Made by a program: the position numbers and the translations under genes
In this document: positions 4,184 to 39,342 of the stretch, one piece after another
Numbering within the stretch: the stretch's first letter is position 1
Layout of the letters: every line of letters begins with the position of its first letter
Notes under the pieces: model-generated
The model's input: only the letters and a program-made list of their open reading frames with translations
Told to the model about the DNA's origin: nothing
Database searches by the model: none
Assembly: GCA_045592665.1 (NCBI GenBank)
Contig: JAZNVE010000148.1
Location: forward strand, 1 to 62,282
Reading direction: 5' to 3'
Source of the DNA: Acutalibacteraceae bacterium
GTDB lineage: Bacteria; Bacillota; Clostridia; Oscillospirales; Acutalibacteraceae
Length of the DNA: 62,282 bases

Positions 4184-4211
4184 TTGTAAATATTTTTCAT
4201 AATGATATAAT
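4184..4211 (+). promoter_or_regulatory. sigma-A-like promoter (TTGTAA-N16-TGaTATAAT)
   Basis: TTGTAA at 4184-4189, a 16-nt spacer, then an extended -10 TGATATAAT ending at 4211. It lies about 30 nt upstream of the 4241 start. Confidence 0.45.
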
Positions 4212-4240
4212 ATATCTATCTTTTAAAAGGAGATGTTTTT

Positions 4241-16362: not shown

Positions 16363-16380
16363 AATTTTTGTCCTTTCTGC

Positions 16381-16806: not shown

Positions 16807-16822
16807 TCAATTTCCACCTCTT

Positions 16823-18805: not shown

Positions 18806-18823
18806 AACTTCCCTCGCTGAAAA

Positions 18824-19093: not shown

Positions 19094-19106
19094 ATTATTT
19101 CATCCT

Positions 19107-19535
19107 TTAATTGAAGAAATTTTCTATCTTGTTTGCTAAACTGTTTATTGTTGAACCAAGTCTTCCCAGCAAACCGTATTCTTGCATTCGTTTATTCTCT
19201 ATTCTTGTTATTTCGTTGTTGATGGAGTCAAGTACATAGTCAAGGGTATTTTTATAATAGTCTTCGTTACGATCCACCGCAACATCACCTTTTACTTTGA
19301 AGCTATTATAATTCTGACCCTCCCACTCATATTTTTCTTTATATATTTTTTCATCTTCTTTTTTTATCGTTTTGAATTGCCTTTTCTGTTCCGCAACCCG
19401 TTCCTTCGCTTTCCTTAATCTGCGAAGCAGATAATTACACTCTTCAATACGGTTGGAGCACGCATTATACTGATTCCTGGCAGTATTCCTTCTTCTTACA
19501 AGGCTGTTATATTGACTCATATCCTTTTCAGCCAT
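19107..19535 (-). CDS. YwqH/DUF5082-like helical protein with an internal WxG
   Basis: RBS AAGGGGGG. 142 aa. YEWEGQNYNSF (W-x-G) and a DSINNEITRIENK...LGRLGSTINSL tail. Confidence 0.7.
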   Translation of the reverse strand: MAEKDMSQYNSLVRRRNTARNQYNACSNRIEECNYLLRRLRKAKERVAEQKRQFKTIKKEDEKIYKEKYEWEGQNYNSFKVKGDVAVDRNEDYYKNTLDYVLDSINNEITRIENKRMQEYGLLGRLGSTINSLANKIENFFN

Positions 19536-19550: not shown

Positions 19551-19587
19551 AATTACAAAATTCGCCCGACAACGCCTGTTGTCGGGC
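19551..19587 (-). terminator. hairpin terminator/attenuator immediately after esxA
   Basis: 11-bp stem cgcccgacaac / gttgtcgggcg (19562-19587), followed on the minus strand by AATTTTGTAATT. Confidence 0.55.
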
Positions 19588-19603
19588 GATAACCAACCAA
19601 CAA

Positions 19604-19897
19604 TTAAGCCTTGAACTGGTTAGCAATGCTTGTATCTGTTTCTTCAACAATTTTAGCTGTTGAATCAAGAGCTGTAGCAATTTCGTAAATGAGAGCCTCT
19701 GCTTTCTGGAAACCGGGTTTAAGCTCCTGGTAACGTGCTGCATAGGATTCGCTTGCTGCACCTTCCCATTCAGCCTGGAGCTGCTGAAGCAAGTTGTCTA
19801 ACTGAGCGATAACGCCGTTAACTGCTTCGCCCTGTCTGCGATACTGATTTGCTTTTTCTCTCATCTGATCAGGAGTAATTCTGATTTGACCTGCCAT
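19604..19897 (-). CDS. esxA: WXG100 family protein EsxA
   Basis: 97 aa. RBS GGAGGGA. IRITPDQM...LQAEWEGAASESY (WxG) in a helix-turn-helix layout. Confidence 0.9.
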   Translation of the reverse strand: MAGQIRITPDQMREKANQYRRQGEAVNGVIAQLDNLLQQLQAEWEGAASESYAARYQELKPGFQKAEALIYEIATALDSTAKIVEETDTSIANQFKA

Positions 19898-20207: not shown

Positions 20208-23200
20208 TTATGACTGCTGTGTTAAAACACTCTTAATTTTCAGACAATCGTTATCCTTGATATAATAACAATCACCTAAGTCTATGGGTTTTTTAAACGC
20301 ACGCATAACCGCCAACGGCAAATCTATTATTTTCATATTTGAAATATCATCAAAGTACATAAATCTGCGAGCATCACGAAGACTTTTAATAAGCTCGGGT
20401 GATGAATAGGATATATTTGTATTCTCATATCCGCCGAATATTACACAAACATTCATATTTTTGTACTTGCCTACAATGTTTTTATAAGCATCCATAACAC
20501 TCATATTAGTGCTGATATATTGCATTGCATCCGCGTTGTTTACAATAAGCACAAGGAGCTTTGATTCCTCTAATACGGAATCCTCACCCGAAGCCAGACG
20601 TGAATATCTTGACTGTAATTCTTCTTCGATTGTTTTTATTGCATCCGCACTCTTTTCAGGCATAACCTCATATGAAACAACGTTTGCGTTAGCCTTGAGA
20701 GGCATAAGCTTCTTATTGATACCGTCAATAATATGAACTTCTGTTTTATCTGCATAATATTCTTCAAGAGAATTTACCAGATACTTAATGAAATTATGCT
20801 TTCCTGAGCCATCGCGACCTGTAACCGTAAGGGGACCGCCCATATTGGCAAGATCAAGCACAAAGGGACTTACGCAAGCATAATCCAGACCCGCAACAAC
20901 AGAGAAGCCATCCTGCATATATCCCGTAAGATTCTCTCTTACAAAGGATTCCGTCAACATTTCGGGAATTACGGGTATCATCTTTGCAAAGGATTTCTTG
21001 TATTTGCTGTTTGTTTGTGCTATAAATTCCTTTATTTCTTTTACTCGGTCGATTTCTTTTTCTCCCTTGAATGCCAAATATGCCTGACAATCAAGGTGAG
21101 TTTTATCTATTTCAACAATACATCTGCCGTGAATATCATCAATGCGTTCACTGCAATGGTCGAACAAAGAGCTGTACTCGTTTGAATCATTACAGAACAA
21201 AGCAATACGTGTAGAGAAGTTTGAAAGATACTTATAACCGATTCCCTGAGTCTGGGAGTTTGCGATAATTATACTTATACCCACCGACAAGCCCTCACGA
21301 CAAATGGCAAGAAGCTCATCATCGTCCTGGAAATAAAGCTCCTTAAGGGCAGTAAGGTTATCTATCATAAGAACTATCTGAGGAAGATCCGTTCTGCCCG
21401 CTTCACGATAGGCGGAAAACGAGCTTACACCCACGGACAGAAGCTTCTCTTTTCGTTGTGCAATTTCGGTATTGATGAGCTTAAAAAGATTTTTAAGCTT
21501 TTCATCCTCTGATGATGTTACAACACCGCCCACATGATTAAGCTTCTCAAAGTTTTTAAGAACCATTGAAGCAAAGTCTATAATATAAATAGAAACCTCA
21601 TCGGGTGTATATTTAGTTGACAAGCTTCTGATGATATTTTGTAAAATATTTGTTTTACCGCTCTGTGCAGAACCGATAAGCATAACATTCTGATTCCCCA
21701 CATCGATTTTATATGTTCCCTGATACTGGTTATCCGGGTCATCATAAACACCGATCTCAACCTCAATTTTGCCGTCATCGGCTCTTTCGTGGTCCACAAA
21801 ATCAATGCACGTGCTCAACGACGGCAGACAGATATCGGGCAATTTTTTAATTTGTTTGCTTTCAAAATGGTTGTGCACATACTCAACGATTGCATCCAGC
21901 TGTGTGGAGCCTCCGTCAGTTTTATCTTTTTTCTGCACATATACGGGAACGCGTTTACCGGAATCGGTCATCTGGAAAATAGCAAACTCTTTAACCTTGC
22001 TTTCGTCAGCCTTTTCAGATGCACCGCTGTACGCGGATTGGAACAATTCAAATATTTCGTTGTTACCCACCTGTAAATATGCGCGACCGGGCTCTTTGAT
22101 TTCAGCGGCGAGGGGGGATTTAATAACCTCGTTACTGTCCTCCTGACTCTGAACCTTAAGACAGAGCTTAAATCTTGAGTTACTCCATATCTGCTCGTTA
22201 ACCTGACCCGCAGGCTTCTGAGTCGCAAGAATAAGGTGTACACCAAGGCTTCGACCTATACGGGCAGCAGAAATAAGCTCCTTCATAAACTCGGGCTGTT
22301 CCGCTTTAAGCTCAGCGAACTCGTCAACAACAATAATAAGGTGGGGTAACGGAGTTTTAGTTTCGCCGGCTTTATATTTTTTGATATATTTATCAATATG
22401 GTTAACATCCGCTTCCGCAAAAAGTCTCTGTCGTTTTTGAAGCTCAGCTTTAATTGATTTAAGAGAACGGTTAATCTCCTTACCGTCAATATTGGTAATT
22501 GCGCCCATCATATGGGGTAAATCACGAAACTGGTTAGCCATACCACCACCCTTGAAGTCGATAATAACAAAACCTACTTCATAAGGATGGAACAACGTAG
22601 CCATTGAAAGAATATATGTCTGAAGAATCTCGGATTTACCTGAACCGGTTGTACCGGCAACAAGACCGTGAGGTCCGTGTGCCTTATCGTGCAGGTCGAG
22701 ATATACGGTGCTTGTTTTGGAAACACCTAAAGGCGCTGCCATGGATTTGAAAACCTTGGATGTGCTCCAACGTTTGTCCAAATCAATATCATCAACCGCG
22801 AGAATATTTAACAATTCAAACAAGGATATGTTTTTCGTAAGAGAGCCTTCAAGTGAAATTTCCTCCGTATAAACAGGGGCAAGAATACGTACAATATCCG
22901 CTGCAGAAGCATTATCAATCTTGGGATATGTAAAGACTTGTGTTTTGCTTCTGTCCTCTGTATGTACGAGTGCCGCTGTATTATTACCCTGAATGTCAAT
23001 AATATAGGAGCAACCCATAGGCACATCTGCTTTTGTATTACCGAAGAACACAAAAATCACACCTAAATCCTTAGCTTCATCAACAAATCTTGAAATAGGA
23101 TGATTCTGGAACCCATATTCATCGTGGAAGAATACCACAATTCTGTTATCAAACTTCTTTTCCTGCTTTCTGTAGGAAAGCTCTTTGTAAAGGTACTCGA

Positions 23201-24719
23201 AAACAAGATTTTTGCTTTCATCATCCGTAACAATAAGGCGACTGCCTATTTCCTCCGAATATGCGTGAGGCAGCATACGTAACCAACGAACATTTTTGGC
23301 GTGTCTGTTTTCTGCCACGAAAATCATTTTAACATCGCTGAAATACTGTCTTGCGGCAATATCGACGATAAGATTTTTCATTATCTCAAAGCGCTCGTAT
23401 TTATCACCCACAACACCTATTGCGTTAGCTTCCTTAAGGTCACACACAATTGGAGCATCTTTGATATATTTGTATTCCTCGCTGAGTTTTTCGGGCATCT
23501 GCTGAAGGTCATCACCCACTTCAAGCTTTTCTTGTTTCTTATAGTTTATTTCGCGGGTTGCCTCAACAAGACCATTGCCAAGCCTTACGCAAAGAAAATC
23601 GTCATCTGTGGGGCGTCTGTCGAACAAATCCGATGAGAAAATGCCGAATCTCTGTCTTTCAACATCCTGCGAAACATATATTTCCTCGCGGACCTTATGC
23701 TCCTCAGCACGACATTTTTCAATATCCTTGCGTTTCTGGGCAATATATGCGTTATATGTATCTATACGCTCCTTAAGACTATGCTCATAGTCTTTTTTGC
23801 CCTCGGACCTATTCAATATAACCGTAAGAATTGATACAACAACAGAGAAAAGGCTGACAACTATCATAGCCGGATTCACAAACGCCATCATTATAGACGA
23901 CATTACCATTGTCAGAGAAGGTAACAATTTTGTTATCAATGATCCATTTTTAGGCTTCTGGGGCTTTGCTGAAGGGTCAAGAATCTCAATTTTTTCATCA
24001 TTGATAATTGACTTTATTCTTGTATTACGGTTGAATTTGGGATACGAATTCTGCTCCGGACAATCCTTGTAGGTTACGGAGTTTAAGCCCATATCATCTC
24101 TTATCTGAGTCCAGATTTTACCGTCTTTATAATAGAAGAAATAATCGGACAATGAGAAGAAGTCACCGTTTTTAATGATTTCATCACCAAGGGCTTTTTT
24201 ACCGTTGTGGTAAACGCCATATTGGCTGTATCCGATTTTAAGCTGATACCCTTCTCCTTTTTTCAATAATGTAATCGTATCATTTTTTATAAAAGGACTT
24301 GCTAAAACAATATTACCGCCGGCATTCGCCCCGATGGATATTGAGCTGAGGCTTGCAACGTCAAGAATTCTCTCATATTTAACCTTACCGTTATCAAAAT
24401 CTATAAGGAATTCAATAGTGAAAGCGGTAATATCCGAATCCTGGTATTTAACATCAATAATGTCGCCGTTTCTTAAGGATATATTCATAAGCTTTCTTAC
24501 GTCGCCTACGGAAAGATATAAATTATCCGAACAGAACACGGACCATTGAGCATTGTTTTTAGTAAATAACAGTTCAATGGGACCAAAGAACAGATTTTTG
24601 TGTAAACGGGCTTCACAATCAACACCCGTACCTATTTTGTACTGATTGTACTCGGGCGTTAATTCAACCTCCTTATATAAATTCTGATTAGAAATGATTA
24701 TTTTATATCTGCTGTTCAT
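20208..24719 (-). CDS. essC: T7SS FtsK/SpoIIIE-family ATPase EssC
   Basis: 1503 aa. RBS AAGGGGG. Two N-terminal FHA-like repeats and two TM helices at about aa 260-300. Three P-loop domains with Walker A motifs GTTGSGKSE, GSAQSGKTN and GRDGSGKHN. Confidence 0.95.
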   Translation of the reverse strand: MNSRYKIIISNQNLYKEVELTPEYNQYKIGTGVDCEARLHKNLFFGPIELLFTKNNAQWSVFCSDNLYLSVGDVRKLMNISLRNGDIIDVKYQDSDITAFTIEFLIDFDNGKVKYERILDVASLSSISIGANAGGNIVLASPFIKNDTITLLKKGEGYQLKIGYSQYGVYHNGKKALGDEIIKNGDFFSLSDYFFYYKDGKIWTQIRDDMGLNSVTYKDCPEQNSYPKFNRNTRIKSIINDEKIEILDPSAKPQKPKNGSLITKLLPSLTMVMSSIMMAFVNPAMIVVSLFSVVVSILTVILNRSEGKKDYEHSLKERIDTYNAYIAQKRKDIEKCRAEEHKVREEIYVSQDVERQRFGIFSSDLFDRRPTDDDFLCVRLGNGLVEATREINYKKQEKLEVGDDLQQMPEKLSEEYKYIKDAPIVCDLKEANAIGVVGDKYERFEIMKNLIVDIAARQYFSDVKMIFVAENRHAKNVRWLRMLPHAYSEEIGSRLIVTDDESKNLVFEYLYKELSYRKQEKKFDNRIVVFFHDEYGFQNHPISRFVDEAKDLGVIFVFFGNTKADVPMGCSYIIDIQGNNTAALVHTEDRSKTQVFTYPKIDNASAADIVRILAPVYTEEISLEGSLTKNISLFELLNILAVDDIDLDKRWSTSKVFKSMAAPLGVSKTSTVYLDLHDKAHGPHGLVAGTTGSGKSEILQTYILSMATLFHPYEVGFVIIDFKGGGMANQFRDLPHMMGAITNIDGKEINRSLKSIKAELQKRQRLFAEADVNHIDKYIKKYKAGETKTPLPHLIIVVDEFAELKAEQPEFMKELISAARIGRSLGVHLILATQKPAGQVNEQIWSNSRFKLCLKVQSQEDSNEVIKSPLAAEIKEPGRAYLQVGNNEIFELFQSAYSGASEKADESKVKEFAIFQMTDSGKRVPVYVQKKDKTDGGSTQLDAIVEYVHNHFESKQIKKLPDICLPSLSTCIDFVDHERADDGKIEVEIGVYDDPDNQYQGTYKIDVGNQNVMLIGSAQSGKTNILQNIIRSLSTKYTPDEVSIYIIDFASMVLKNFEKLNHVGGVVTSSEDEKLKNLFKLINTEIAQRKEKLLSVGVSSFSAYREAGRTDLPQIVLMIDNLTALKELYFQDDDELLAICREGLSVGISIIIANSQTQGIGYKYLSNFSTRIALFCNDSNEYSSLFDHCSERIDDIHGRCIVEIDKTHLDCQAYLAFKGEKEIDRVKEIKEFIAQTNSKYKKSFAKMIPVIPEMLTESFVRENLTGYMQDGFSVVAGLDYACVSPFVLDLANMGGPLTVTGRDGSGKHNFIKYLVNSLEEYYADKTEVHIIDGINKKLMPLKANANVVSYEVMPEKSADAIKTIEEELQSRYSRLASGEDSVLEESKLLVLIVNNADAMQYISTNMSVMDAYKNIVGKYKNMNVCVIFGGYENTNISYSSPELIKSLRDARRFMYFDDISNMKIIDLPLAVMRAFKKPIDLGDCYYIKDNDCLKIKSVLTQQS

Positions 24720-24733
24720 TACTTTATGCCCCC

Positions 24734-24988
24734 TTACTCGGTAAAGTTAATTACGCTTCCGTTACGAATACCGTATTCCTTAAGCGTTTTATTACCACGA
24801 AGTAATGCTATGGGATTTTCCGCTTTAAGATAGCAATTCTTAACATCCGCTGTATCAATACCTAACTGATATGCCTGATTCAAAGCAATTGTAAGGTCAT
24901 TTCCCGAAATATCAAGGGGCACCTCTAAATCCACCGAAAAACCTCTGTTTAAAATATTGAAAATAATAATCGCTGTTTCTTTAGCCAT
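24734..24988 (-). CDS. esaB: YukD/EsaB-like ubiquitin-fold protein
   Basis: 84 aa, immediately upstream of essC. RBS GGGGGGA. Beta-grasp-like pattern ending KTLKEYGIRNGSVINF. Confidence 0.75.
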   Translation of the reverse strand: MAKETAIIIFNILNRGFSVDLEVPLDISGNDLTIALNQAYQLGIDTADVKNCYLKAENPIALLRGNKTLKEYGIRNGSVINFTE

Positions 24989-25018
24989 ATATTTCCCCCC
25001 ACAAAAATCTGATTGAAT

Positions 25019-26077
25019 TTATATAATCAAAAATGTCGTTTTTTGTATCCCTTTTTCATTTGAAAAATCGTCCGCCTTCATTCTCGGATAATTTGAAAAA
25101 TGCTCAATATATTCATTTACTGCAAATTTCATCGATAATTCTGACGAAACAAGGGCGTTTGCATTACCTCTGTCAAAATCATTGCATACGAACAGATACT
25201 TTTCCGAATTGAGACCGTTTATATTTGATGCCATAATATTGGTAGCATAAACCGCGCCCATATCCTGCTTAGTAACAATAATAACTTTATCCGCTGCATT
25301 GATTAATCCTGCTTTAAAATCATCAAAGGCTATGTCCGCATCCACTACTATATAGTCATATTCTTTGGATTTTTTCGCAGCAACCGCAAGCTCGGAAAAG
25401 ACCATATAGCTGATTCCCAAGGACATCAACGATGATTTAAAGGGTGGTATGTAACTGAACTGCTCTTTTCTTACAACATGCTTTATTTCTGAAAAAACAA
25501 GGGTTGAACGGTTCGTAAACCTCGAATACACATCCAATGCAGTTATGGGTGTTTTGTTATCTAACAGGTGCTGAAAGTGCTGTAGTCGGTCCGCATTTAT
25601 GTATAAAACCTTTTTATAGTTCTTGGTAAGGCAGGAGCTTATACCCATAGCGACGGTTGTTTTGCCCACTCCGCCACAGGCAGAAGTAACAAGTATTATC
25701 TGAGGCTCCTTTTTCTCGTTTACGTGTACCCTTAAGGAGCCCTGACTCTTACCTATAATTTCGGTGAAAATCTCTTTAATGCTTGTATATTTATAAATAT
25801 GACTTACATTAAGCTGAGCCGTGGATTCTTCTGTATACTGCTCGGTCATCAAAAAAATATGACCTATATCGTGTCTTAAAACGCTATTATCAAATAAATC
25901 TTCTGATATTATAAGAATTTCCGCCTTTTTGGGCTCGGAAAAATATTGGTTAAAATAATCCTCTTTCGTTATAACCTCAATATCTACCTTTTCGAAAAAT
26001 TCTTCTATGAATTTATATTGTATGGGAATTACGTAATCCTTATCAGAATCAGCAATTATAATCTTGGGTTTTGCCAT
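25019..26077 (-). CDS. receiver-like domain fused to a ParA/MinD/CpaE-type P-loop ATPase
   Basis: N-terminal KIIIADSDKDYV...ILIISEDL resembles a CheY-like fold. P-loop ILVTSACGGVGKTTVAMG and Walker B-like YDYIVVDAD. The signature Lys of KGGxGK is Cys here. Confidence 0.8.
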   Translation of the reverse strand: MAKPKIIIADSDKDYVIPIQYKFIEEFFEKVDIEVITKEDYFNQYFSEPKKAEILIISEDLFDNSVLRHDIGHIFLMTEQYTEESTAQLNVSHIYKYTSIKEIFTEIIGKSQGSLRVHVNEKKEPQIILVTSACGGVGKTTVAMGISSCLTKNYKKVLYINADRLQHFQHLLDNKTPITALDVYSRFTNRSTLVFSEIKHVVRKEQFSYIPPFKSSLMSLGISYMVFSELAVAAKKSKEYDYIVVDADIAFDDFKAGLINAADKVIIVTKQDMGAVYATNIMASNINGLNSEKYLFVCNDFDRGNANALVSSELSMKFAVNEYIEHFSNYPRMKADDFSNEKGIQKTTFLII

Positions 26078-26102
26078 ACCGATTTATATCCCTTCTGCAA
26101 TT

Positions 26103-27038
26103 TTAATCAATAACAAATTGGAAATCACTGTTTGCCAAACGAATTATATCGCCGTTTTTAATATAATATGGTTTGTTGGGCTCTAATTTTGATTTGTTTA
26201 TATATGTACCGTTTGCACTCTTAAGGTCAGTAAGTGCATATTTGCTTCTATATTTATCTATACGACAATGAACCTTACTTACCATACCGTTAAAAGAAAC
26301 TACTCCGTCCACGGCAGATGAATTTCTGCCGATAAGGAAGCTGTCCTTATTTATAACAAACTCCGTGTGTGTGGGGGCATTCATCGCCACAAGTCTTGCC
26401 GTCTGGTCCAGTATTGATTTTCTGATCGAGCCCGAGGAGGTCTTTTTATAATCAGTATTGCCTGTATATCCGGTTTTACCGTTAGCCATACCGTTGTAAA
26501 CGTCCTCTAAGGATTTTCTTCCGTCCGACAAGTCGGATTGCAATTTGAAAAGATTAGGAGTAGAAAAGCTCGGGAAAGCCGAAATGGTTTTTATCAACGT
26601 TGTTCTCAGTTCACTTTCAAATGAAGCATAATCCTCAAACATACCCTTTTCAACAGGAACATAAACAAGATTAACCTTGTATGTATTGGCATCTACGAAA
26701 ATATGCTCAAAAGAAATATCGATATTTTCACAGCTTAAAAAACCGTTATTTTTTACCGCAAGTATTGCACCGAATAAGTTTGAAACTATAGTCATAAAAT
26801 TTTCGGGCGAGATATTTGACATCATACTGAGAAGCGGTTTATTGGATTTGACAATATAAAACAGCTGAATTTTGCCGTTGTATTTCATTTTCATACATTT
26901 AAGCAGATTATTGCTGCCCTGACTTTGTAAAACCTTATATTCGGTAGTCAAAAACAAGCTATTATCATTTAACACATATGAAAAATTAGAACCGCAAGCC
27001 ATTTCCTCCAGCAAGCCTTTTTGTACCAATAAATTCAT
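26103..27038 (-). CDS. FHA-domain protein whose N-terminal globular domain is paralogous to that of 37201..39126
   Basis: ATG at 27038, 7 nt after AGGGG. C-terminal FHA with canonical GR...SKVH...NG (FLIGRNSS...MVSKVHCRI...SANGTYIN). The N-domain ...FLSCENIDISFEHIFVDANTYKVNLVYVP aligns with ...LSIDKLLLDFRYVFINETSWEVQLAYTP. Confidence 0.8.
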   Translation of the reverse strand: MNLLVQKGLLEEMACGSNFSYVLNDNSLFLTTEYKVLQSQGSNNLLKCMKMKYNGKIQLFYIVKSNKPLLSMMSNISPENFMTIVSNLFGAILAVKNNGFLSCENIDISFEHIFVDANTYKVNLVYVPVEKGMFEDYASFESELRTTLIKTISAFPSFSTPNLFKLQSDLSDGRKSLEDVYNGMANGKTGYTGNTDYKKTSSGSIRKSILDQTARLVAMNAPTHTEFVINKDSFLIGRNSSAVDGVVSFNGMVSKVHCRIDKYRSKYALTDLKSANGTYINKSKLEPNKPYYIKNGDIIRLANSDFQFVID

Positions 27039-27116
27039 AAGCATACCCCTACATATATTTTGTTTATCTCAAGTGAAGGCGCTGTCAGTGCCCTCAGTTC
27101 AAATAAACCATACTCT

Positions 27117-27140
27117 CCGGTGCAGGTTACCCTGCACCGG
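27117..27140 (-). terminator. perfect 10-bp hairpin after the giant gene (attenuator or RNA-stability element)
   Basis: ccggtgcagg-ttac-cctgcaccgg. The downstream minus-strand sequence AGAGTATGGTTTATTTG is only moderately T-rich. Confidence 0.4.
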
Positions 27141-27161
27141 AAAGCTTTAGTTAATTAAGTT

Positions 27162-33100: not shown

Positions 33101-33494
33101 CCTTAGCAGATATAGTAACCTCTATATCTTCGTTATCACTTGTAATATTTTTTTCGATGCTTTTGCTCTCGTAACCGTCCTTTGTAACGGAACCGCTGAT
33201 TTTCAAGCCATCCTTATAATCTGCCTTAGCAAGAACCTCGGCAGAGCCGTTTGCATTTGTAGTGACCTTATCATTTTTTATCTCTACATCTGCACTATCG
33301 GTAATTGTATACGATACCTCTGCACCGCTTACAGGGTTACCTTCGCCGTCTTTTACGGTTACGGTAACAGCTTCGGGATATTCCGTGGTTGCCGCTGACA
33401 CAGGGACAGCGGAAACGGGAACCATACCGAACACAAGTAACATCGTAAGTGCTACTGCTAAGATTCTTTTTGTAGCATTACTCATCTTACTCAT
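27162..33494 (-). CDS. 2110-aa cell-surface protein with many Ig-like repeats and a C-terminal TM anchor
   Basis: ATGA overlap with the upstream gene; RBS AAGGGGAGA. Signal peptide ...VPVSAVPVSA. At least 9 domain boundaries of the form (I/V)D.T.P.i.v.Y. A D7 run. C-terminal TM AAALIIILILL followed by KKRKKKDEK. No LPXTG. Confidence 0.9.
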   Translation of the reverse strand: MSKMSNATKRILAVALTMLLVFGMVPVSAVPVSAATTEYPEAVTVTVKDGEGNPVSGAEVSYTITDSADVEIKNDKVTTNANGSAEVLAKADYKDGLKISGSVTKDGYESKSIEKNITSDNEDIEVTISAKVITGITVVALNTQCKPDKETGKAKKFDAVSVQGTAEGDTVLYQLDGGEATDKVPQISIPGKYKVKVTVKRNGYVDFVKDTEAKITDLYFTEKGKESVFNGEPQELLKGTNCEGLTKYYGYSFEFYVGDEKTTTIPKRTNVGEYAVRVVGESSFEGLSRIDKVFNTKITPAELNDGVVSITPYSGAYDAASHPAVQVEALQGKKLESVSYSQDGTNWSAEVPQIKNAGSYPVYVKVKLDDDNYKETEKTVTAMISTADRKLEFNKFVAGSSSVSMTPAVSITDGKVQVKFVTDFGATAENKTKDEKIVYSVDSSDATIDDAGTFRTSVPGTYKVKASIAATADYHEAEIEYTITVKAKTTKDYDVSFVEFENTDKVVYVLNKDNNLISNRQSKITVADDDSNVTYSIKGIRENGKEYEVGGVYCDSVTGEIKVSDYNALVVALNRSETNGVINAVVTAKKSDGKLSGKDSATYEIQLRFADTPEAPVSLSFPITKYGWINDEIIVTPKTGYTVAKGVKYGNDSNPDPLYRATTIIKDGNNIATAFKNTVKFGDEGITKRTVYLCDNAGYICGPVDLKINLNGAEQDLKVDRTVPTALEIDYSTEIDSVGDAIKTLFYRDTVTVTFKATDTLSGIDRFVCEYDEKEIPVENFQSLDDGKSATATAEITVKKGDAVDGNVSLTVYDRAGNVSKKKGNDTVIIDYISPKLAVEYLNPVKVVPDDETTPKTYYFNETTPLVYKVKVKETNGFEENGSIKVFKDGAEFAKATVKYERLDDDDDDDGYDIYTVTVPSTEENQGVYTVEAYYVDKSTNQMEGNGVETVKIIEDGVEKEVAKFVSDEMVIDVTDPVISFEYNENKKHDGEPCDDYAVTLTVTEVNFDPASFVATVEAKDIKENIVAVDKLNNYITDIENWKSVGNNKYECTLTYGENGVLPDANYKNIKFQYTDLAKNSGEKNSEEFIIDTTAPTAPVIEYEESLWPVIAEVLTLGLSDEIVYKYFNAPTTITLTSTDATWGVESFVLTYNRQKGESKSNVEKLYIDNIEATPSETDNDVFTAQVTLPKEEADQLRGSMTAYAIDKHGIKSESVTDDGTVIVVDDIAPEVSVAYSKAQPKVTEDNKAYYNNDIVGTITVEEANFYAEDVVLSVTRDGVEIEAPAIEWSGTVDADGDKEDVYTGTFTLPALADHSTDGDYIVKVSYTDRSTKEAEAYESDILVIDTTAPVINVAYSNTTPENKLPDPYIEGAEREYFRGQQVATITITEHNFFKDEVDLSSILEQDVSGNPVAQTRIESDWVSDGDVHTMTITYPGNANYTFDIDYADLADNAAADYTKDYFTVDNTLPVIVKAEQKNDVASTFINNITFGYFGEKAQVEVTVTDDISFANIVEATYEQADGTSSVNKTDEKQTAKAEKIEILNEGKTAKTTFVMPKGILEKGNNMNGSVKFVATDRAGNKSNGNVDGKDITGVIVDNITPKAKIELSKPYTTENKISYYDGKITGTITVTEANFDNPEEFKLSYSKDGAKGVRIPLKWTHKSVNTHIATFTLTQDGDYILTATYKDRSKNEMATYKSNQLTIDTKINAPVITFQGDSNGGLGFNDEVIPGVKFEDDNYKSYQITLTRTRYDEKNIDVKDQFIGNRVAINANGGSGTFNTFEKIRDNDGVYTLTVKMTDKVDHSSTTSRTFVVNRFGSVYVYNDALIDLINDRYTKEVAEDLVITEYNANKLKESTLKVDITRDGRPVDKAIASTAPAKNSGWYEYAHTINRENFNSEGLYKIAVSSTDEVNNNSENKEDKNTLDKKFTEIKDVLWFKVDKTLPSITSFTITEEASNKKDYKGDYDGEYTEIKAENANVEFTVYDAIGIAKVEVIVDGITVEVFEGKELGDDINNFTGKFKLSEEDDKQKVVIKVTDLSGRVLDTANIKEAKDSIPESFTGSMLVSSNFFVRFWNNQPVFWGVVGGTVGAAALIIILILLKKRKKKDEK

Positions 33495-33970
33495 AAATTT
33501 TCTCCCCTTTTATTTTTCTTTTTTATTTGATTATAAATGTTTCCGTTTAATATACTGTGTAAACTAAAAGAAACAATCATTAAAAATAACAAAATATAAA
33601 CCACATAAGAATTACTGTACCTCGTGAACATAAGTACAATAAATGAAATTGTGCTTGCTAAAAAAACTCCATCCGCAACAGAGGCACGTATACTTCTGAA
33701 AAATCTGAGAACCCCGGGAATTCTTTTTACCGGTATCTCATCCCCGTGCTCCTGCTTGTGCCATTTTTTGTATTTAACCAAAGTAAGCACCAAAAATAAC
33801 AAGCTGAACAGGAAGCCTACCCAGAATACAGTGCCCACAACTACAACGGGTGTGTTAGTCTGCGCTTGTGCCGAAAAGGGCATCGCAGGAAAGGTTGCTC
33901 CTAAAAGAAACGTAAAAAACATATACAACCCCATCATAAGACGTATTGTTTGTTTTTTGACCTTCTTCAT
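33491..33970 (-). CDS. small polytopic membrane protein
   Basis: ATGA overlaps at both ends; RBS GAGGTGA. 159 aa with about 4 hydrophobic helices. Confidence 0.75.
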   Translation of the reverse strand: MKKVKKQTIRLMMGLYMFFTFLLGATFPAMPFSAQAQTNTPVVVVGTVFWVGFLFSLLFLVLTLVKYKKWHKQEHGDEIPVKRIPGVLRFFRSIRASVADGVFLASTISFIVLMFTRYSNSYVVYILLFLMIVSFSLHSILNGNIYNQIKKKNKRGENL

Positions 33971-34665
33971 TCAATCACCTCAGCGGTGTGTATTAACATT
34001 ACATCATCCAGTGACGATAACTCTTTTTTAGGAACGAAGCTGGGCTTTTCAACGGGCTCTTCACCACCGAGGAGAGCCGTTTCATTAAGTGCTGTTGTTT
34101 CCTCTCCGGTTATATCGGTATCCTGCGTAAATAAGGGTGCCGTTTCATTAAGAGGTGCTGTTTCGTTAAGTGCCGCTGTTTCCTCACCTGTTGAAGGCTC
34201 CCTTGAGAATATGGGAACATTGAGAGGTGCGGTTTCATTGAGAGGCGCTGTTGCGTTATCTTCAAAAGCGGGTCTTCTTTCAGTACTTTCAAGCAACGCT
34301 GTTTCCTGTGAATTAATCTTTTGAGGACTGTTTTCTCCAAGAACACCGGTCTGGGCTTTCCTTGAAGCTTTTCTTGCTGCCCTTTGCTCTTTTGTATTAG
34401 AGGGCTTCGGAGCAGCTTTGGGTTGTTCTATTGTAGCCGTAACCTTACCTCTGTTCTGGTTAACGGGACTTGAGCCGTGTGACTTTTTGCCGGACTTCTC
34501 ATTGAACTCACGCATCTGAGCAATGGATTTACGAGCTGTTCTACCGGACAAATCACCAATAACACTCGGGATTTTAAATTTAACAAAAAGGATTGCTGCA
34601 ATAAGAAACGCGATTCCCGCAATAACGAAGGAGATTATTGAAATTACTGATAATACTTCTGCCAT
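33967..34665 (-). CDS. N-terminally anchored membrane protein with degenerate ETAPLN hexapeptide repeats
   Basis: RBS AAGGAGGAG. TM VISIISFVIAGIAFLIAAILFV, a basic segment, then about 8 copies of (E)ETA(P/A/L)L(N) across about aa 118-200. Confidence 0.75.
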   Translation of the reverse strand: MAEVLSVISIISFVIAGIAFLIAAILFVKFKIPSVIGDLSGRTARKSIAQMREFNEKSGKKSHGSSPVNQNRGKVTATIEQPKAAPKPSNTKEQRAARKASRKAQTGVLGENSPQKINSQETALLESTERRPAFEDNATAPLNETAPLNVPIFSREPSTGEETAALNETAPLNETAPLFTQDTDITGEETTALNETALLGGEEPVEKPSFVPKKELSSLDDVMLIHTAEVIE

Positions 34666-34668
34666 AAA

Positions 34669-36402
34669 TTACTTCTCCTCCTTATAATCATACTCACGAT
34701 TTATTTTAGCGAGATAATCTTCATAATTATCGATGATTTTTTGTTTCATATCTTTTGTGAATTTATTAGAGCCACCATCTTTGGTGTCATTAGCCATTTC
34801 GTAAACCCTGTTTAACAAGGCTGTAAGTGTCTCTTTTTCAATTTCAACACCGCTGAACTTTGACTTACAGCTATCCAACAAACAGAAAACAGCGTAATAA
34901 TAACACAATTTATCATAATTACCTATTGTTTCATTATCGTCTATAACATCAAGTGTTTTATTTACACCGACAAACAATTTTTTACATTCTTCTGTCGTAA
35001 GATCATATCTTGTATCCTCGGGGATATATCGTTTTTGGAATACGCATATTTCCTTGAAGCTTTTTTCGTAATCAGAAGGCACGTAATTTTCAATAGCGGT
35101 ATTTCTGTCCAGATATACTATGGCTTTATCACATTTTTCAATTGTCCCGTCGTTTATTTCTCCCTCTGAATTCACAGAAGTATAATAGAAATAACAAAGT
35201 GTTGCCATACGGAAATTAATATCTGCATAGGTTTTCGGATCAGCCTTAAGAAGCTCGGCACTATTGTTTTTCAGAATATTACCCTTTTCATCTTTTGAGC
35301 CACCGTGATAAATTGCCTCAAAATCTGCAAGATCCGAAGAGGTGAAGCCCTTGCCCTCCAAAACCTTATCCTCATAATATTCAACCAATTTCACATATGC
35401 AGCTGCTCTTTCGGGATATAAAGTAACGGCTTTTTTATAAAATGCTATGTCATCTGTATGATTTACATACGCATCATACGTATTTTCATTAATCGCTTTT
35501 GCACCCAATGCCGTACCAATACCAGAAAATGCCATTATTATACTGAGAACAAAGGGGATAACCGTTCCTATAACCTTTCTTTTCTGTATTTTTTTGTATC
35601 CCGATGTAATAAGGTCGGGGTGTTCAAGGTCATATATAAGGTCTGCACAGCTCTGATACCTGTTTTCTTCCGCAGGCTGAACGCACTTATCAATAATGAG
35701 CTCAATACCCTCCGAAAGGTTTGGATTAATCTGTCTTACGGGCACATATCCGTCACCCATTCTGGGGTCAACGCCCGTAAGAAGGTTGTGCATTGTCATA
35801 CCCAGGGAGTAAATATCGGATCTGGGTGTTGTCTGTCCGTTATATGCTTCGGGAGGTGCGAAACCTCTTGTACCGAGAACCTTTGTATCTGCAAGATTTT
35901 GCTCTTTATACTCACGGGCAATACCGAAGTCAATAATCTTAATATTACCCTCGGGCTTAAGCATAATGTTTGCGGGCTTCATATCGCGGTAAACGATAGG
36001 TCTCGGCTTCTGTGAATGAAGGTATGATAAGGCATCACAAATCTGCTTTGCCCATTCAATAACCTTTTCTTCATCCTGAACGCCGTACTCTTTTAAAATT
36101 TTGTCAAGAGATTCGCCTTCAATATAGTCCATTACAACGTAAATTGTAATTCCGTTGTCAATAATATCAACTATTCGCGGTAAAGCAGGGTGATCAAGAC
36201 GCTTCATAAGGTTTGCTTCAGCAAGTAAGCTGTTTACAACAATTTCATCATTTGCGCCTGTACCCTTTTTTCTGATTTCCTTAACTGCCCACTGTTTATT
36301 GAGATGGCTGTCCATGGCAAGATATACCGTAGACATACCGCCTCGACCAATTTCCTTAAGTATCTCGTACTTACCGTCAATTATTGTTCCTATCTCTGTC
36401 AT
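34669..36402 (-). CDS. Hanks-type Ser/Thr protein kinase with TM and an extracytoplasmic helical domain
   Basis: RBS GAGGTGAGGGG. Motifs GRGGMSTVY, WAVKEI, YRDMKPANIM, IDFGIA and GTRGFAPPE. TM VIGTVIPFVLSIIMAFSGIGTAL. About 270-aa C-terminal domain with no PASTA pattern seen. Confidence 0.9.
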   Translation of the reverse strand: MTEIGTIIDGKYEILKEIGRGGMSTVYLAMDSHLNKQWAVKEIRKKGTGANDEIVVNSLLAEANLMKRLDHPALPRIVDIIDNGITIYVVMDYIEGESLDKILKEYGVQDEEKVIEWAKQICDALSYLHSQKPRPIVYRDMKPANIMLKPEGNIKIIDFGIAREYKEQNLADTKVLGTRGFAPPEAYNGQTTPRSDIYSLGMTMHNLLTGVDPRMGDGYVPVRQINPNLSEGIELIIDKCVQPAEENRYQSCADLIYDLEHPDLITSGYKKIQKRKVIGTVIPFVLSIIMAFSGIGTALGAKAINENTYDAYVNHTDDIAFYKKAVTLYPERAAAYVKLVEYYEDKVLEGKGFTSSDLADFEAIYHGGSKDEKGNILKNNSAELLKADPKTYADINFRMATLCYFYYTSVNSEGEINDGTIEKCDKAIVYLDRNTAIENYVPSDYEKSFKEICVFQKRYIPEDTRYDLTTEECKKLFVGVNKTLDVIDDNETIGNYDKLCYYYAVFCLLDSCKSKFSGVEIEKETLTALLNRVYEMANDTKDGGSNKFTKDMKQKIIDNYEDYLAKINREYDYKEEK

Positions 36403-36414
36403 TTACCCCTCACC

Positions 36415-37185
36415 TCACGACATTGTTTTTATAAGCAAAACCGAGATGTTGTCCCTCTCACCACGAGATTTTACCAACTCAATCACGTGTTTTGCATTGC
36501 TGTGCATAGATTGTTTATGGGGAAGCACGCTTGCATCAAAATACTGGGCTATTTCCTGGGGTGAAACCTGATGTCTGAATCCATCCGAACAAAGAAGGTA
36601 CACGCCGTTCTGTGCTTCGCTTATAATAACCTCGGGTTCAACATCACGTGAAGCACCTACACACTGAAGAAGAAGGTTACGACGGCTGTCAACTCTCGCT
36701 TGCTCCGGAGTCATATTACCACGCCTTACTTCTCTTTCTACAAAGCTCTGGTCTATTGTCAGCTGTTTCAAGCCCTTATTTATGTAATACGCTCTGGTAT
36801 CACCAACGTGCACAATAAGATATTTACCCTCTGCAAAAAGCATACCCGTAAATGTTGTACCCAGATTCACACCCAGATTAAGACCAAACTGAGATATTTT
36901 AGCATTAAGCTGTTTGAGCATATGAGTCCACTTACCGGCAACAACCTCTAAATTAAGGTGCTGAAGCTCATAGGGAAGTTCTTCATCAAACCACCTTGAA
37001 AATTCCCTTATGACCGTCGCACTGGCAAGTTCACCCTTGGCAAGTCCACCCATACCGTCACATACAACGGCAAGGAGCACCTGCTTATTGTCTTTATCAT
37101 AAACAGCCTGTTTTATTAAGAGACTGTCTTGATTTGTTTTTTTCACAATACCTACATCGGTATCTGCAGTAGCTATATAATGCAT
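36415..37185 (-). CDS. PP2C-family Ser/Thr phosphatase
   Basis: RBS GGGAGGT. Motifs NQDS, LLAVVCDGMGG, LLCSDGF and RGERDNISVLL. Confidence 0.9.
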   Translation of the reverse strand: MHYIATADTDVGIVKKTNQDSLLIKQAVYDKDNKQVLLAVVCDGMGGLAKGELASATVIREFSRWFDEELPYELQHLNLEVVAGKWTHMLKQLNAKISQFGLNLGVNLGTTFTGMLFAEGKYLIVHVGDTRAYYINKGLKQLTIDQSFVEREVRRGNMTPEQARVDSRRNLLLQCVGASRDVEPEVIISEAQNGVYLLCSDGFRHQVSPQEIAQYFDASVLPHKQSMHSNAKHVIELVKSRGERDNISVLLIKTMS

Positions 37186-37200
37186 CTTTTACCTCCCTGT

Positions 37201-39126
37201 TTATACTTTAAACAAAAAGTCTTCATTAGCAAGCGTAATGGTATCGCCGTCAAATATTTCTATTTCACAATTGGGCATTATCATTCTGCCGTTAATATAA
37301 GTCTTATTTTTCGAGTTAAGGTCTGTAATGAAATACCTGTTATCACGTATAATTATGTCCGCATGACTTCTGCTGATAACATTGCTGTTGCTTACAAAAT
37401 AGTCAACATAACTACGTTCCTTACCAATTCTGAAAACAGGCTTTGATATTTTTACAACATCACCGTTGAAAATACGCTTAAGAGTAGGATATTTAATATA
37501 TTCCTTTTCAGGCGCAGAACCATTACTATATGTGTCCATAGGTGCAAAAGGCTCATCTGTAAGAAGGCCCGTTTTATCCTCATCAAATCCACCTGACATC
37601 ATGACTGACTGAGGCGCCGGTGTCGGCTGTGCCACGGGCTGAGGTGCAGGCTTAACCATCGGTTGCGGTGCAGGTGCCGGCTGTGCCACAGGCTGAGGCG
37701 CGGGCTTAACCACCGGTTGCGGTGCAGGTGCCGGCTGTGCCACGGGCTGAGGTACGGGCTTAACCACCGGTTGCGGTGCAGGTGCCGGCTGTGCCACGGG
37801 CTGAGGTGCAGGCTTAACCACCGGTTGCGGTGCAGGTGCCGGCTGTGCCACGGGCTGAGGTGCAGGCTTAACCATCGGTTGCGGTGCAGGTGCCGGCTGT
37901 GCCACGGGCTGAGGCACGGGCTTAACCATCGGTTGCGGTGCAGGTGCACCCTTTGATATCTTCATTACTTCATCAGAAGACAGCTCATATGCCGGTTTTA
38001 CTGCAGCTGCAGAAGCCGGAACAGGCTGTGCCATAGGTTTAGCCACAGGCTGTGGTTGCGGTGCAGGTGTCGGCTGCACCTTGGGTTTAACCGCGGGCTG
38101 TGGTTGTGGTGCAGGCTTAACCACCGGTTGCGGTGCAGGTTGCACTACAGGTGCGACTTCGGGTTTGAAAACAAATCCGTCATCCGATTTTTCTGCTACT
38201 TTTTCGATGTCAGAAGCATCTTCTTCTATCAATAATGAAGTATCGTCCAATTCAGCATTAAACTCAACCGATTGAGCCACAGAGCTTCCCTGAGCTTGCT
38301 CAGCATCTTCTATTAGCAGGGCAGTGTTGTCCTCTGCCTCATCGCGCTCCGATATGGGCATTGACTGTGCCACGGGGTTCTGAACCTTAGTCGGTTGTTC
38401 TTCCCCTACGGAGTTATCATCCAGCATATCGGCAATATTAATTTCAGGAACCTGACTTAAGTTGACCGCTTTCGCAATCGGTTCGGGTTTTACGGAAGGT
38501 GCCGTTTTACCGACTTGTTCCACACTTTCATTCTGATTATTGATTACAACATTTCGTGAAGGGTGGGATTTATTTACCGCATCAACAACTTTAGCATCCT
38601 CATTTAAGATGTAACTCTCAATACGGGTGTAATCAAACCCATCCACAGACTTAAGAAAAGCCAAAAAGCGTTGCGCGTATTCCATATCTGCTTCGCGAAA
38701 AGGCTTTGTCATTGCGGAAATCGCGGACATAAAGCTTATCAAATTATTGGCATTAGCTTTAGCAGCACATGGTGTATAAGCTAACTGAACCTCCCACGAT
38801 GTTTCGTTTATAAAAACATATCTGAAATCAAGCAACAATTTATCAATAGAAAGATTAAGCGATTTTATATCACGGGCAATTGCCGCAAGCTGTTGCATAA
38901 TAAGGAAATACTGCACCTTGGACATAGGCTGTTTAAGTCTTTCACCCAACGGAACTCCATTCATACAAACAAACTGCACCTGATCATCCTGAACAGAAGA
39001 ACCCAGGATACCCTTTATAGGTGTTTTTGATACATACAATGCTTCACCCTTAACAAATCCGTCAGCAGAAGTAAAGCCTATATTAATCACCTTTGCATTA
39101 CCGTTATTTAATACTTTAATCTCCAT
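37201..39126 (-). CDS. FHA-domain protein: N-terminal globular domain, acidic linker, Pro-rich tandem repeats, C-terminal FHA
   Basis: RBS TAGGAGGT; first gene after the 39195-39223 promoter. Six 18-aa PAPAPQP(V/M)VKP(A/V)PQPVAQ repeats. FHA FRIGKERS...ISRSHADII...SKNKTYING. Confidence 0.85.
   Translation of the reverse strand: MEIKVLNNGNAKVINIGFTSADGFVKGEALYVSKTPIKGILGSSVQDDQVQFVCMNGVPLGERLKQPMSKVQYFLIMQQLAAIARDIKSLNLSIDKLLLDFRYVFINETSWEVQLAYTPCAAKANANNLISFMSAISAMTKPFREADMEYAQRFLAFLKSVDGFDYTRIESYILNEDAKVVDAVNKSHPSRNVVINNQNESVEQVGKTAPSVKPEPIAKAVNLSQVPEINIADMLDDNSVGEEQPTKVQNPVAQSMPISERDEAEDNTALLIEDAEQAQGSSVAQSVEFNAELDDTSLLIEEDASDIEKVAEKSDDGFVFKPEVAPVVQPAPQPVVKPAPQPQPAVKPKVQPTPAPQPQPVAKPMAQPVPASAAAVKPAYELSSDEVMKISKGAPAPQPMVKPVPQPVAQPAPAPQPMVKPAPQPVAQPAPAPQPVVKPAPQPVAQPAPAPQPVVKPVPQPVAQPAPAPQPVVKPAPQPVAQPAPAPQPMVKPAPQPVAQPTPAPQSVMMSGGFDEDKTGLLTDEPFAPMDTYSNGSAPEKEYIKYPTLKRIFNGDVVKISKPVFRIGKERSYVDYFVSNSNVISRSHADIIIRDNRYFITDLNSKNKTYINGRMIMPNCEIEIFDGDTITLANEDFLFKV
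37613..37948. repeat. 54-nt tandem repeat, about 6 copies, in-frame in the 37201..39126 gene
   Basis: The motif ggctgtgcc recurs at 37625, 37679, 37733, 37787, 37841 and 37895, exactly 54 nt apart. Degenerate related copies at about 38030-38150. Confidence 0.9.
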
Positions 39127-39194
39127 AAAAACCTCCTAAGCTCAAGTTTTTTATGCTAAATTATAATACACCTATCCTAATTATAATCGGTGTA

Positions 39195-39223
39195 ATTATA
39201 TTCTTTTTAGAAAATTTTGTCAA
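39195..39223 (-). promoter_or_regulatory. consensus sigma-A promoter of the secretion operon (TTGACA-N17-TATAAT)
   Basis: The minus strand reads TTGACA (39223-39218), a 17-nt spacer, then TATAAT (39200-39195). It lies about 70 nt upstream of the 39126 start. Confidence 0.6.
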
Positions 39224-39294: not shown

Positions 39295-39342
39295 GTTTAA
39301 AAAACCGTATCCTCCCACAGAACAGTGTTCTATGAGAGGATA
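39295..39342 (-). terminator. intrinsic terminator ending the glnA / kinase-fusion transcription unit
   Basis: Long imperfect hairpin tatcctc...agaaca / tgttct...gaggata (39308-39342), followed by TTTTTT on the minus strand. Confidence 0.75.

Follow-up and report, generated by a model that had tools for sequence, protein, structure and literature searches.

Eight type VII secretion system (T7SS) subtypes beyond T7SSa and T7SSb, named T7SSc to T7SSj, have been catalogued by Garrett, Higginson and Palmer (Microlife 2024, PMC11217815; hereafter Garrett et al., 2024). Here we describe a T7SS locus of an Acutalibacteraceae bacterium, carried on contig JAZNVE010000148.1 of assembly GCA_045592665.1. 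The whole stretch of DNA analysed, 62,282 nt in length, is called the window, and the operon in question runs on its minus strand from position 39126 down to 20208. This locus is a real, intact and widely conserved type VII secretion operon without recognisable EssA, EssB or EsaA. Taken as a whole, it is quite probably a non-canonical T7SS of gut and rumen Clostridia in which a phospho-switch, together with a TadZ-like protein and a giant surface protein, stands in place of those three components.

The published catalogue designates components by letters, which we use here as well: A is the WXG100 protein, B is YukD, C is EssC, D is a membrane Ser/Thr kinase, F is a PPM phosphatase, H has a single transmembrane segment (TM) and a disordered cytoplasmic tail, I is a giant Ig-like protein suggested to span the envelope like EsaA, J combines DUF6382 with FHA, K is a single-TM protein, and V is TadZ-like, with a receiver and an ATPase (Garrett et al., 2024). 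T7SSf, known from Clostridia such as Clostridium acetobutylicum and C. felsineum, was published as A, B, C, F, a J with two TMs, and V, with neither a kinase nor I, and V was described for this subtype only. T7SSe (A1, A2, B, C, D, F, H, I, J, K) and T7SSj (A, B, C, D with a TPR C-domain, F, I, J, K, and no H) were assigned to Clostridium spp. and diverse Bacillota. Phospho-regulation of these systems was proposed in the same work by analogy with the type VI secretion system (T6SS). The catalogue was built from RefSeq, and Oscillospiraceae, Lachnospiraceae and Ruminococcaceae are unmentioned in it (Garrett et al., 2024).

Gene content and layout of the operon

The open reading frame (ORF) map of the window shows ten intact, co-oriented minus-strand ORFs in the order J2-F-D-h-k-I-J-V-B-C, where J2 is a second J-type protein, h resembles H, and k is a small four-TM protein. 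Consecutive genes are separated, from 5' to 3', by 15, 12, 3, -4, -4, 117, 25, 30 and 14 nt; both -4 gaps are literal ATGA overlaps, and a Shine-Dalgarno-like sequence precedes each of the ten genes. The original prediction of a ten-gene minus-strand run, tightly spaced except for a 117-nt gap containing a hairpin, was thus verified in its coordinates, its distances and the hairpin itself. So was the consensus promoter it had placed upstream: the sigma-70-type site TTGACA-N17-TATAAT (39195..39223, minus strand) is the sole 12/12 match between 19500 and 39450. Promoter-like sites as a class were not in excess over this region of about 20 kb (56 against 54 in shuffles), and therefore only the perfect site is informative. 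The strong terminator said to insulate the operon from the gene upstream was also found (39308..39342, minus strand), as a 16-bp stem with a U6 tail (folding free energy, dG, -23.1; z -6.2). It is one of three hairpins of the locus that lie far outside their own shuffles (39342-39308, 27145-27112 and 19589-19562). An Rfam scan of 15000-42000 at E<=0.1 gave no match.

The upstream half of the operon begins with J2 (37201..39126), a long FHA protein of 641 amino acids in which a weak DUF6382-like N-domain (21-24 bits, below the cut-off) and about 330 amino acids of Pro-rich repeats precede the FHA domain (Pfam, 3.8e-14). F (36415..37185; 256 amino acids) is a PP2C/PPM Ser/Thr phosphatase (Pfam PP2C_2, 5e-8; NCBIfam Stp1/IreP, 2.4e-49, below the equivalog cut-off). 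D (34669..36402; 577 amino acids) is a membrane Hanks-type Ser/Thr kinase (Pkinase, 1e-50) in which the kinase domain (residues 12-255) is followed by a TM (277-295) and a helical C-terminal domain of about 280 amino acids. Its catalytic residues are kept (K41, YRD at about 139-141, N at about 146 and DFG158), and the C-terminal domain found only one match among PDB sequences, a weak one to a designed TPR (E 0.02). The kinase is not soluble, its single TM being followed by an ectodomain. The small single-pass membrane protein h (33967..34665; 232 amino acids) has a TM at residues 10-28, a basic juxtamembrane motif and a Thr-rich, disordered tail in which ETxxL is repeated seven times (as ETAPL, ETAAL and the like); it had no Pfam family match at E<=10. 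The protein k (33491..33970; 159 amino acids) has four TMs by hydropathy and only sub-threshold Pfam matches. The half ends with I (27162..33494), a giant surface protein of 2110 amino acids, similar to TsxI, with an N-terminal signal or TM (11-29) and a C-terminal TM anchor (2083-2101). In I, a Big_1 match at residues 42-103 lies slightly under the Pfam cut-off (7e-8), a PDB sequence search found no match, and BLAST found no internal repeats.

The downstream half encodes J, V, B and C. J (26103..27044; 313 amino acids) is a soluble DUF6382 and FHA protein (Pfam, 1.1e-9 and 3.2e-16, respectively) without a hydrophobic segment. J and J2 had been called paralogous soluble FHA proteins, which holds for their FHA domains (44% identity across 80 residues); their N-domains, however, are only weakly similar, and J2, the long one, has the Pro-rich repeats. 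V (25019..26077; 352 amino acids) is TadZ-like, with an atypical receiver and a ParA/MinD-type ATPase (AAA_31, 6e-13), and its best PDB sequence match, 3fkq_A (2.4e-19, residues 3-276), spans both domains. B (24734..24988; 84 amino acids) is a YukD/EsaB-like ubiquitin-fold protein (Pfam YukD PF08817, 3.5e-8, 34.5 bits against a cut-off of 27) for which the PDB sequence search gave no significant match. C (20208..24719; 1503 amino acids) is the EssC ATPase (TIGR03928, 1138.6 bits against a cut-off of 778, residues 225-1496), with an N-terminal FHA region, two TMs and three FtsK_SpoIIIE-type ATPase domains. Walker A motifs are found at 689 and 1016, and the third, at about 1301, is degenerate (GRDGSGKH). 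The gene for EsxA, the WXG100 protein A (19604..19897, minus strand; 97 amino acids; PF06013, 1.6e-19; TIGR03930, 74.5 bits), lies 310 nt downstream of essC with promoter-like sites of its own, and a terminator hairpin follows it (19562..19589, minus strand; dG -23.2, z -5.4). The operon had been predicted to end with a YukD-like gene and a three-P-loop EssC, with esxA next; the gene set is as predicted, but the third P-loop of EssC is the degenerate one. The PP2C, the Hanks kinase, the receiver-ParA ATPase, the two small membrane proteins and the 2110-residue surface protein were all recovered as domains or TMs.

None of the ten proteins matched EssB/YukC, EssA or EsaA in the Pfam and NCBIfam profiles, and relaxing the Pfam search to E<=10 for the ectodomain of D, for h, for k and for both DUF6382 domains brought up no YukC, EssA or EsaA either. 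The T7 island within the window contains no further polytopic membrane ORF, and none with the topology of EsaA (one N-terminal and four or five C-terminal TMs). Profile searches of the operon ORFs and TM inspection of the island therefore agree with the claim that the locus has no EssA-like gene and nothing of EsaA topology. The companion claim that nothing in the set is EssB-like fared less well. It is right in that no profile matched, but D has the order kinase, TM and ectodomain, and models of the DUF6382 domain of J are kinase-like, with YukC/EssB ranking second among the solved structures they resemble.

The J models deserve some comment. Full-length J was modelled by AlphaFold from an alignment of 68 sequences (predicted local distance difference test, pLDDT, 73), and a fold search with this model returned FHA domains only. 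Residues 1-195 were then modelled alone (pLDDT 72; predicted template modelling score 0.72), and Foldseek matched this N-domain model to protein-kinase domains, with Bacillus subtilis YukC/EssB (6z0f_A) at rank 2 in the PDB (E 9.8e-4, TMq 0.56) and the EssB-like N-domain of the type IV secretion protein TraF (8cba) at rank 30. Searching PDB sequences with the J profile gave FHA domains only, and YukC was not among the matches. The invariant columns of the J family include neither an HRD nor a DFG motif. Because the fold is kinase-like and these motifs are missing from the invariant columns, DUF6382 is best read, from the models, as a compact pseudokinase. The fold match supports a predicted kinase-like fold with EssB among its nearest solved examples; it does not support orthology.

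The gene set can be set against T7SSb as represented by S. aureus Ess and B. subtilis Yuk. Both have an EssC that passes TIGR03928, YukD/EsaB and EsxA, and in both, LXG toxins are encoded downstream together with immunity proteins and small helical partners. The FHA domains of EssC are bound in T7SSb by the pseudokinase EssB. The system described here likewise combines FHA domains with a domain of pseudokinase fold; the difference is that no EssB, EssA or EsaA is recognisable, and that the protein with this fold is soluble and has its own FHA domain fused to it. Beyond what T7SSb has, the system includes a catalytically equipped kinase, a phosphatase, an ATPase of the TadZ type and a giant surface protein with two TMs.

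Relation to the described subtypes and conservation

The closest likeness in the core genes is to T7SSf, with which the locus shares EsxA, YukD, an EssC with N-terminal FHA, the PP2C F, J with its DUF6382 and FHA domains, and the TadZ-like V. The locus also has the gene order J...V-B-C-A in common with one relative (locus L075, discussed below), and V lies directly upstream of the YukD gene here. The FHA region of EssC adds to this. In Table S1 of Garrett et al. (2024), the GR/SxxH/NG pattern of the EssC FHA domain is scored 0/0/high in TsfC, and 98-100% in TsdC, TseC and TsjC. In the window EssC, FHA2 has GA for GR and KNDT for SxxH and keeps NG. The same is seen across its clade, where none of 55 sequences has the GR arginine, neither Ser nor His ranks with the commonest residues at its SxxH position, and NG is essentially invariant. 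Hence the EssC FHA resembles that of T7SSf in lacking GR and SxxH while keeping NG. There are clear differences, however. The J of T7SSf is anchored by two TMs, as it is in L075, whereas J here is soluble and accompanied by a second paralogue; the kinase D, h, the four-TM k and the 2110-residue I are present here, whereas T7SSf has no kinase and no I; and identity between the V proteins of the window and L075 is only 37%.

T7SSj and T7SSe resemble the locus in another part of the set, namely the membrane kinase D, the PP2C F, a soluble J and a giant I with a signal peptide plus a C-terminal TM, besides YukD, EssC and EsxA. TsjD has a TPR-type C-domain, to which the weak designed-TPR match of D is a partial parallel, and the single-pass H of T7SSd and T7SSe, with its disordered cytoplasmic tail, is like h. 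In contrast to the present locus, no V is described for T7SSe or T7SSj, and TseC and TsjC keep the phosphothreonine motifs that the window EssC does not have. In addition, T7SSe has two core WXG100 genes (A1 and A2), where a single core esxA lies by essC here, and its K is a single-TM protein with a zinc ribbon, while the second small membrane protein here has four TMs and no zinc ribbon. T7SSj has no H, whereas h is present here.

The N-terminal 700 amino acids of the window EssC scored 160 bits against the TsfC representative (from residue 7), compared with 86 for S. aureus EssC, 85 for TseC and 77 for TsjC, so that TsjC and TseC scored lowest; the references were transcribed from the image of Fig. 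S2, so that identities (about 25% to the partial TsfC sequence) are underestimates. Over their full length, the window EssC and that of L075 are 44% identical. The EssC N-terminus, the FHA motif pattern and V all point to T7SSf, in so far as sequence likeness can place such a system. A crude neighbour-joining tree with the noisy partial references placed the clade beside no reference, and because this placement did not resolve, we call the system T7SSf-related rather than T7SSf. In the published nomenclature it is a relative of T7SSf that also carries D, H and I, typical of T7SSd, T7SSe and T7SSj.

In composition the locus equals none of the eight published subtypes exactly; alongside V it has D, the H-like h, I, the four-TM k and two J paralogues, of which J itself is soluble. 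The published catalogue lists no set that unites T7SSf-like C, V and B with D, H and I, another J and a protein of four TMs. None of six EssC accessions (from four named Clostridium species and two 'Bacteroides' records) appears in those parts of the lists of Garrett et al. (2024) that were available, and most other relatives are known only as metagenome-assembled genomes (MAGs), without a WP accession. The idea that such a gene set makes a distinct T7SS architecture, which was the first interpretation of this DNA, is sound to the extent that the accessory genes are unlike the T7SSb core and linked to the EssC clade. It is right but not new, because the concept had already been published (Garrett et al., 2024). 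The present locus extends that framework and adds no new principle.

Conservation was followed through V, for which 1311 homologues were found; the best 120 of the 1311 are almost all 58-63% identical to it and 351-358 amino acids long. Five metagenome or genome contexts of V homologues showed the same gene order. A V-alignment scan with one genome per species gave 76 loci, mostly from gut and rumen MAGs of Oscillospiraceae, Acutalibacteraceae, Lachnospiraceae, Ruthenibacterium and Faecalimonas. The closest (87-92% V identity) are Oscillospiraceae and Acutalibacteraceae MAGs, and further carriers are C. folliculivorans, C. polynesiense, C. nigeriense, C. sartagoforme and Alloiococcus sp. CFN-8. 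Complete genomes with the locus include OZ007023.1, NZ_CP188040.1 and those of C. nigeriense (LT575472) and C. fungisolvens. Labels of Bacteroides, Muribaculaceae or Bacteroidales are attached to some loci of the system (L012, NZ_CAJLKP010000069.1; L041; L056; L066), and EssC WP_289698725 of this Bacillota system is recorded under 'Bacteroides acidifaciens'; such labels are probably errors of binning or contamination.

The order [J2]-F-D-h-(k)-I-J-V-B-C is kept in most of the 76 species-level genomes and in further metagenome contigs. J lies directly upstream of V in 66 of 69 loci, B directly downstream of V in 58 of 66, and C is present in 50 of 52, a tight and wide linkage that bears out the supposed association of this gene set with its EssC. 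Where the full 10 kb upstream was covered (49 loci), an I homologue of at least 1000 amino acids was found in 40, any upstream ORF of at least 1200 amino acids in 44, and D in 38; seven of the 11 loci without a D match have a giant gene (2287-2941 amino acids) that occupies most of the flank. F is present in 10 of the 11 loci in which D is complete and more upstream sequence exists. Homologues of k occur in 22 of the 49 full-flank loci (26 distinct sequences over all fetched loci) and are absent from several Clostridium loci. A J2-type gene just upstream of the PP2C gene F was seen in L013, L021, L038, L054, L057, L064 and L065.

There are exceptions to this order. In L021, L051, L053 and L054, D is larger and the large protein is of a different kind, and L064 and L065 are rearranged. 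L075 has the layout J(467 amino acids, two TMs)-F-V-B-C-A, which is that of the published T7SSf, and no D, h, k or I was found in the 10 kb fetched upstream of it. With neither a kinase nor a giant protein nor any small membrane protein seen in that stretch, L075 argues that the upstream half of the operon is accessory or regulatory rather than obligatory core.

A side observation touches the pair V and B. One metagenomic V homologue, P0117, is called as a protein of 456 amino acids with both AAA_31 and YukD. Whether V and YukD are truly fused in it or two genes were merged in the call, it is consistent with a functional link between V and B.

A possible phospho-switch and competing explanations

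From gene content, domain identities, linkage and the DUF6382 fold, we infer how such a machine may work. By homology with T7SSb, the motor would be the hexameric ATPase EssC, acting with YukD and EsxA, and the cargo would be EsxA and the LXG or WXG-partnered toxins encoded downstream. The membrane kinase D, sensing through its extracytoplasmic TPR-like domain, would write phosphothreonine marks that the PP2C F would erase, and the soluble pseudokinase-FHA adaptors J and J2 would read them. In the J family, the Ser, His and Asn-Gly residues of the FHA domain are invariant or nearly so; since the EssC FHA has lost its phosphothreonine-binding residues, the reading of phosphothreonine has probably been delegated to J and J2. 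A likely target of D would be the Thr-rich cytoplasmic tail of h, with its conserved ETxxL motifs. Across 38 homologues, h combines the N-terminal TM with a conserved IGDLSGRTA(R/K)KSIAxMR, a low-complexity tail with ETGLL-type motifs and a C-terminal EEVxLxHTxEVI, and TxxL/I/V occurs 254 times in these tails against 105 expected by shuffling (2.4-fold). A preference for a hydrophobic residue at the third position past the phosphothreonine is shared by many FHA domains. The tail of h is a candidate multi-site docking region for FHA domains. V would probably position or scaffold the machine, by analogy with TadZ in Tad pili, and I would probably span the wall as a conduit or contact sensor.

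The same logic is found in the Thr-phosphorylation pathways of T6SS (PpkA-PppA-Fha in P. aeruginosa and PpkA-TssL-Fha in A. tumefaciens), where a membrane Hanks kinase, a PP2C and an FHA adaptor likewise belong to a secretion operon. The arrangement of D, h and J recalls PpkA-TssL-Fha of Agrobacterium in particular (cited in Garrett et al., 2024), with the proposed docking of an FHA domain on the phosphorylated tail of a small membrane component as the parallel to TssL. The two differ in that T6SS is an unrelated secretion machine and the FHA adaptor here carries a pseudokinase domain, and the parallel is no more than an analogy.

Several points weigh against this account. First, the match between J and YukC is modest (E about 1e-3, root-mean-square deviation 6-7 Å), no better than those to generic kinases, and confidence is low in the first 65 residues of the N-domain model. 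Second, the TxxL enrichment sits in a low-complexity tail, which makes it suggestive but not specific, and for h, as for the other membrane proteins, topology was predicted only from hydropathy and the positive-inside rule. Finally, no experimental characterisation of any of the subtypes T7SSc to T7SSj was found in the literature after Garrett et al. (2024).

As a model of how T7 may be activated, the locus offers a concrete and testable switch of kinase, phosphatase and FHA-pseudokinase. LXG toxins delivered by T7SS shape how Bacillota compete, and this clade indicates that many uncultured gut and rumen Clostridia (Oscillospiraceae, Acutalibacteraceae, Lachnospiraceae and several Clostridium species) use a machine without the T7SSb membrane core. 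C. fungisolvens is a cultivable carrier, as are C. folliculivorans, C. nigeriense, C. sartagoforme and C. polynesiense. The architecture further suggests that the published T7SSf set is a reduced form of a larger one. A bolder version, which we advance only tentatively and regard as less likely than not, is that the TadZ-linked EssC clade is an undescribed full-form subtype from which the published T7SSf was reduced; that the contact between EssB and the FHA domains of EssC was re-wired in it into a phospho-switch, running from the kinase to TxxL motifs on a single-pass tail, to a pseudokinase-FHA adaptor and on to a phosphothreonine-blind EssC; and that a hairpin with a UAUUURUYAG tail sets the ratio of sensor to motor.

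That hairpin lies in the 117-nt gap between I and J (27045-27161), at 27112..27145 on the minus strand, and is the most stable of the three (dG -30.5, z -7.2); its U tail is broken. In about 40 of 50 relatives the I-J gap contains a hairpin at or below -20 kcal/mol, usually 10-35 nt past the stop codon, and the stems differ in sequence among species, with compensation. Of 47 I-J gaps, 28 contain a TATTTRTYAG-like motif, which usually follows the hairpin within a few nt; the background rate is 0.027 per 130 nt. Leaky termination or processing at the hairpin may set the ratio between the two halves of the operon. Being so strong, the hairpin could instead mean that the two halves are separate expression units, which counts as a further point against a single machine.

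The serious rival takes up this last possibility and divides the locus into two adjacent units, a T7SSf-type J-V-B-C with esxA, and a surface signalling or adhesin operon J2-F-D-h-k-I that is outside the apparatus and perhaps co-regulated with it. In its favour, the highly stable hairpin, U-rich in its tail, falls exactly at the junction of I and J and keeps that position in about 40 of 50 relatives, and L075 is without D, h, k or I in the fetched 10 kb; Ser/Thr kinase, PP2C and FHA modules are, moreover, common general regulators. On the other hand, the halves are adjacent and co-oriented across families of Clostridia, and one strong promoter serves the whole set, with no coding-strand site above 9/12 before J. 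F lies in the upstream half here, yet it belongs to the minimal T7SSf set of L075, and T7SSd, T7SSe and T7SSj likewise pair D and I with EssC. We therefore consider the division into two units unlikely, and a single machine with its regulators the better explanation.

The next explanation would keep the canonical T7SSb core and suppose that it has diverged past recognition, with D as an EssB orthologue that has an active kinase, h as EssA and I as EsaA. The topologies run parallel in each of the three pairs (D and EssB both place a TM and an ectodomain behind a kinase or pseudokinase domain, h and EssA are both small and single-pass, and I and EsaA are both huge, extracellular and anchored in the membrane), the EssC is above the cut-off of the T7SSb EssC equivalog, and the topological similarity of D to EssB was pointed out for TscD by Garrett et al. 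(2024). Against this stand the profile searches, which found no YukC, EssA or EsaA even at E<=10, and the TMs of I, which are two against the five or six reported for EsaA. Furthermore, D retains its catalytic residues, the nearest thing to an EssB pseudokinase fold is found in J and not in D, and F, two J proteins and V are all foreign to T7SSb. A core of this kind is improbable, and a non-canonical T7SS without it remains the preferred reading.

A decaying remnant, its composition explained by gene loss out of T7SSb, has nothing in its favour except the absent core genes and is effectively refuted, because the ten ORFs are intact, with Shine-Dalgarno sequences and tight coupling, and the gene set is kept in dozens of species, with V homologues of near-constant length and identity among those listed and intact toxin and immunity cassettes downstream; it is extremely improbable. 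A prophage or mobile-element artefact was also considered and found no support.

Genes around the operon

Downstream of esxA, an effector cassette (16048..19535, minus strand; Pfam) encodes YwqH-like and DUF5344 helical partners, an LXG-WHH nuclease toxin of 660 amino acids, a SUKH immunity protein and a DUF4176 protein. Further on, at 1379-6169 on the plus strand, lies a four-gene cluster for a zinc-ribbon one-TM protein, a 188-residue ORF, a 243-residue kinase and a 642-residue OmpA-like lipoprotein. In the 91%-identical contigs L001 and L002, the corresponding cluster, with a second ORF of 144 amino acids, comes directly after essC and is convergent with it. About 14 kb separate cluster and essC in the window, and this interval holds esxA, two toxin cassettes with helical partners (one of them the LXG-WHH cassette) and a lipase gene. 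Because close relatives carry the cluster immediately past essC, the stretch of about 14 kb is a strain-variable effector island. Some close relatives have no esxA next to essC.

Two further proteins have lipase-like domains. A fusion of a GDSL-lipase-like domain, FHA and a Ser/Thr kinase, 701 amino acids long and without a TM (39354-41459, minus strand), is encoded immediately upstream of the terminator and promoter of the operon; a look-up of its exact sequence found no record. A 564-residue protein (6700-8394, minus strand), encoded among genes for small helical proteins, combines an Mbeg1-like/Lipase_3 domain (NCBIfam SA1320 family) at the N-terminus with a long C-terminal region; it is a candidate 'reverse-orientation' lipase substrate of the kind mentioned by Garrett et al. 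(2024).

Many relatives carry another module directly after essC, which was searched for in the window and is absent there. Typically it consists of a WXG100 gene (about 105 amino acids), an ORF of about 135 amino acids, one of about 480 with two or three TMs, one of about 190 with two TMs, a TPR protein of about 440, a second WXG100 gene and EsxA. It was seen in L003, L005/L014, L012, L013, L024, L032, L033, L036, L060, L061, L068, L070, L072, L076 and the minimal T7SSf-type L075, and a few loci have variants without the two-TM ORF or with other sizes. This module could represent further core components or a conserved effector set.

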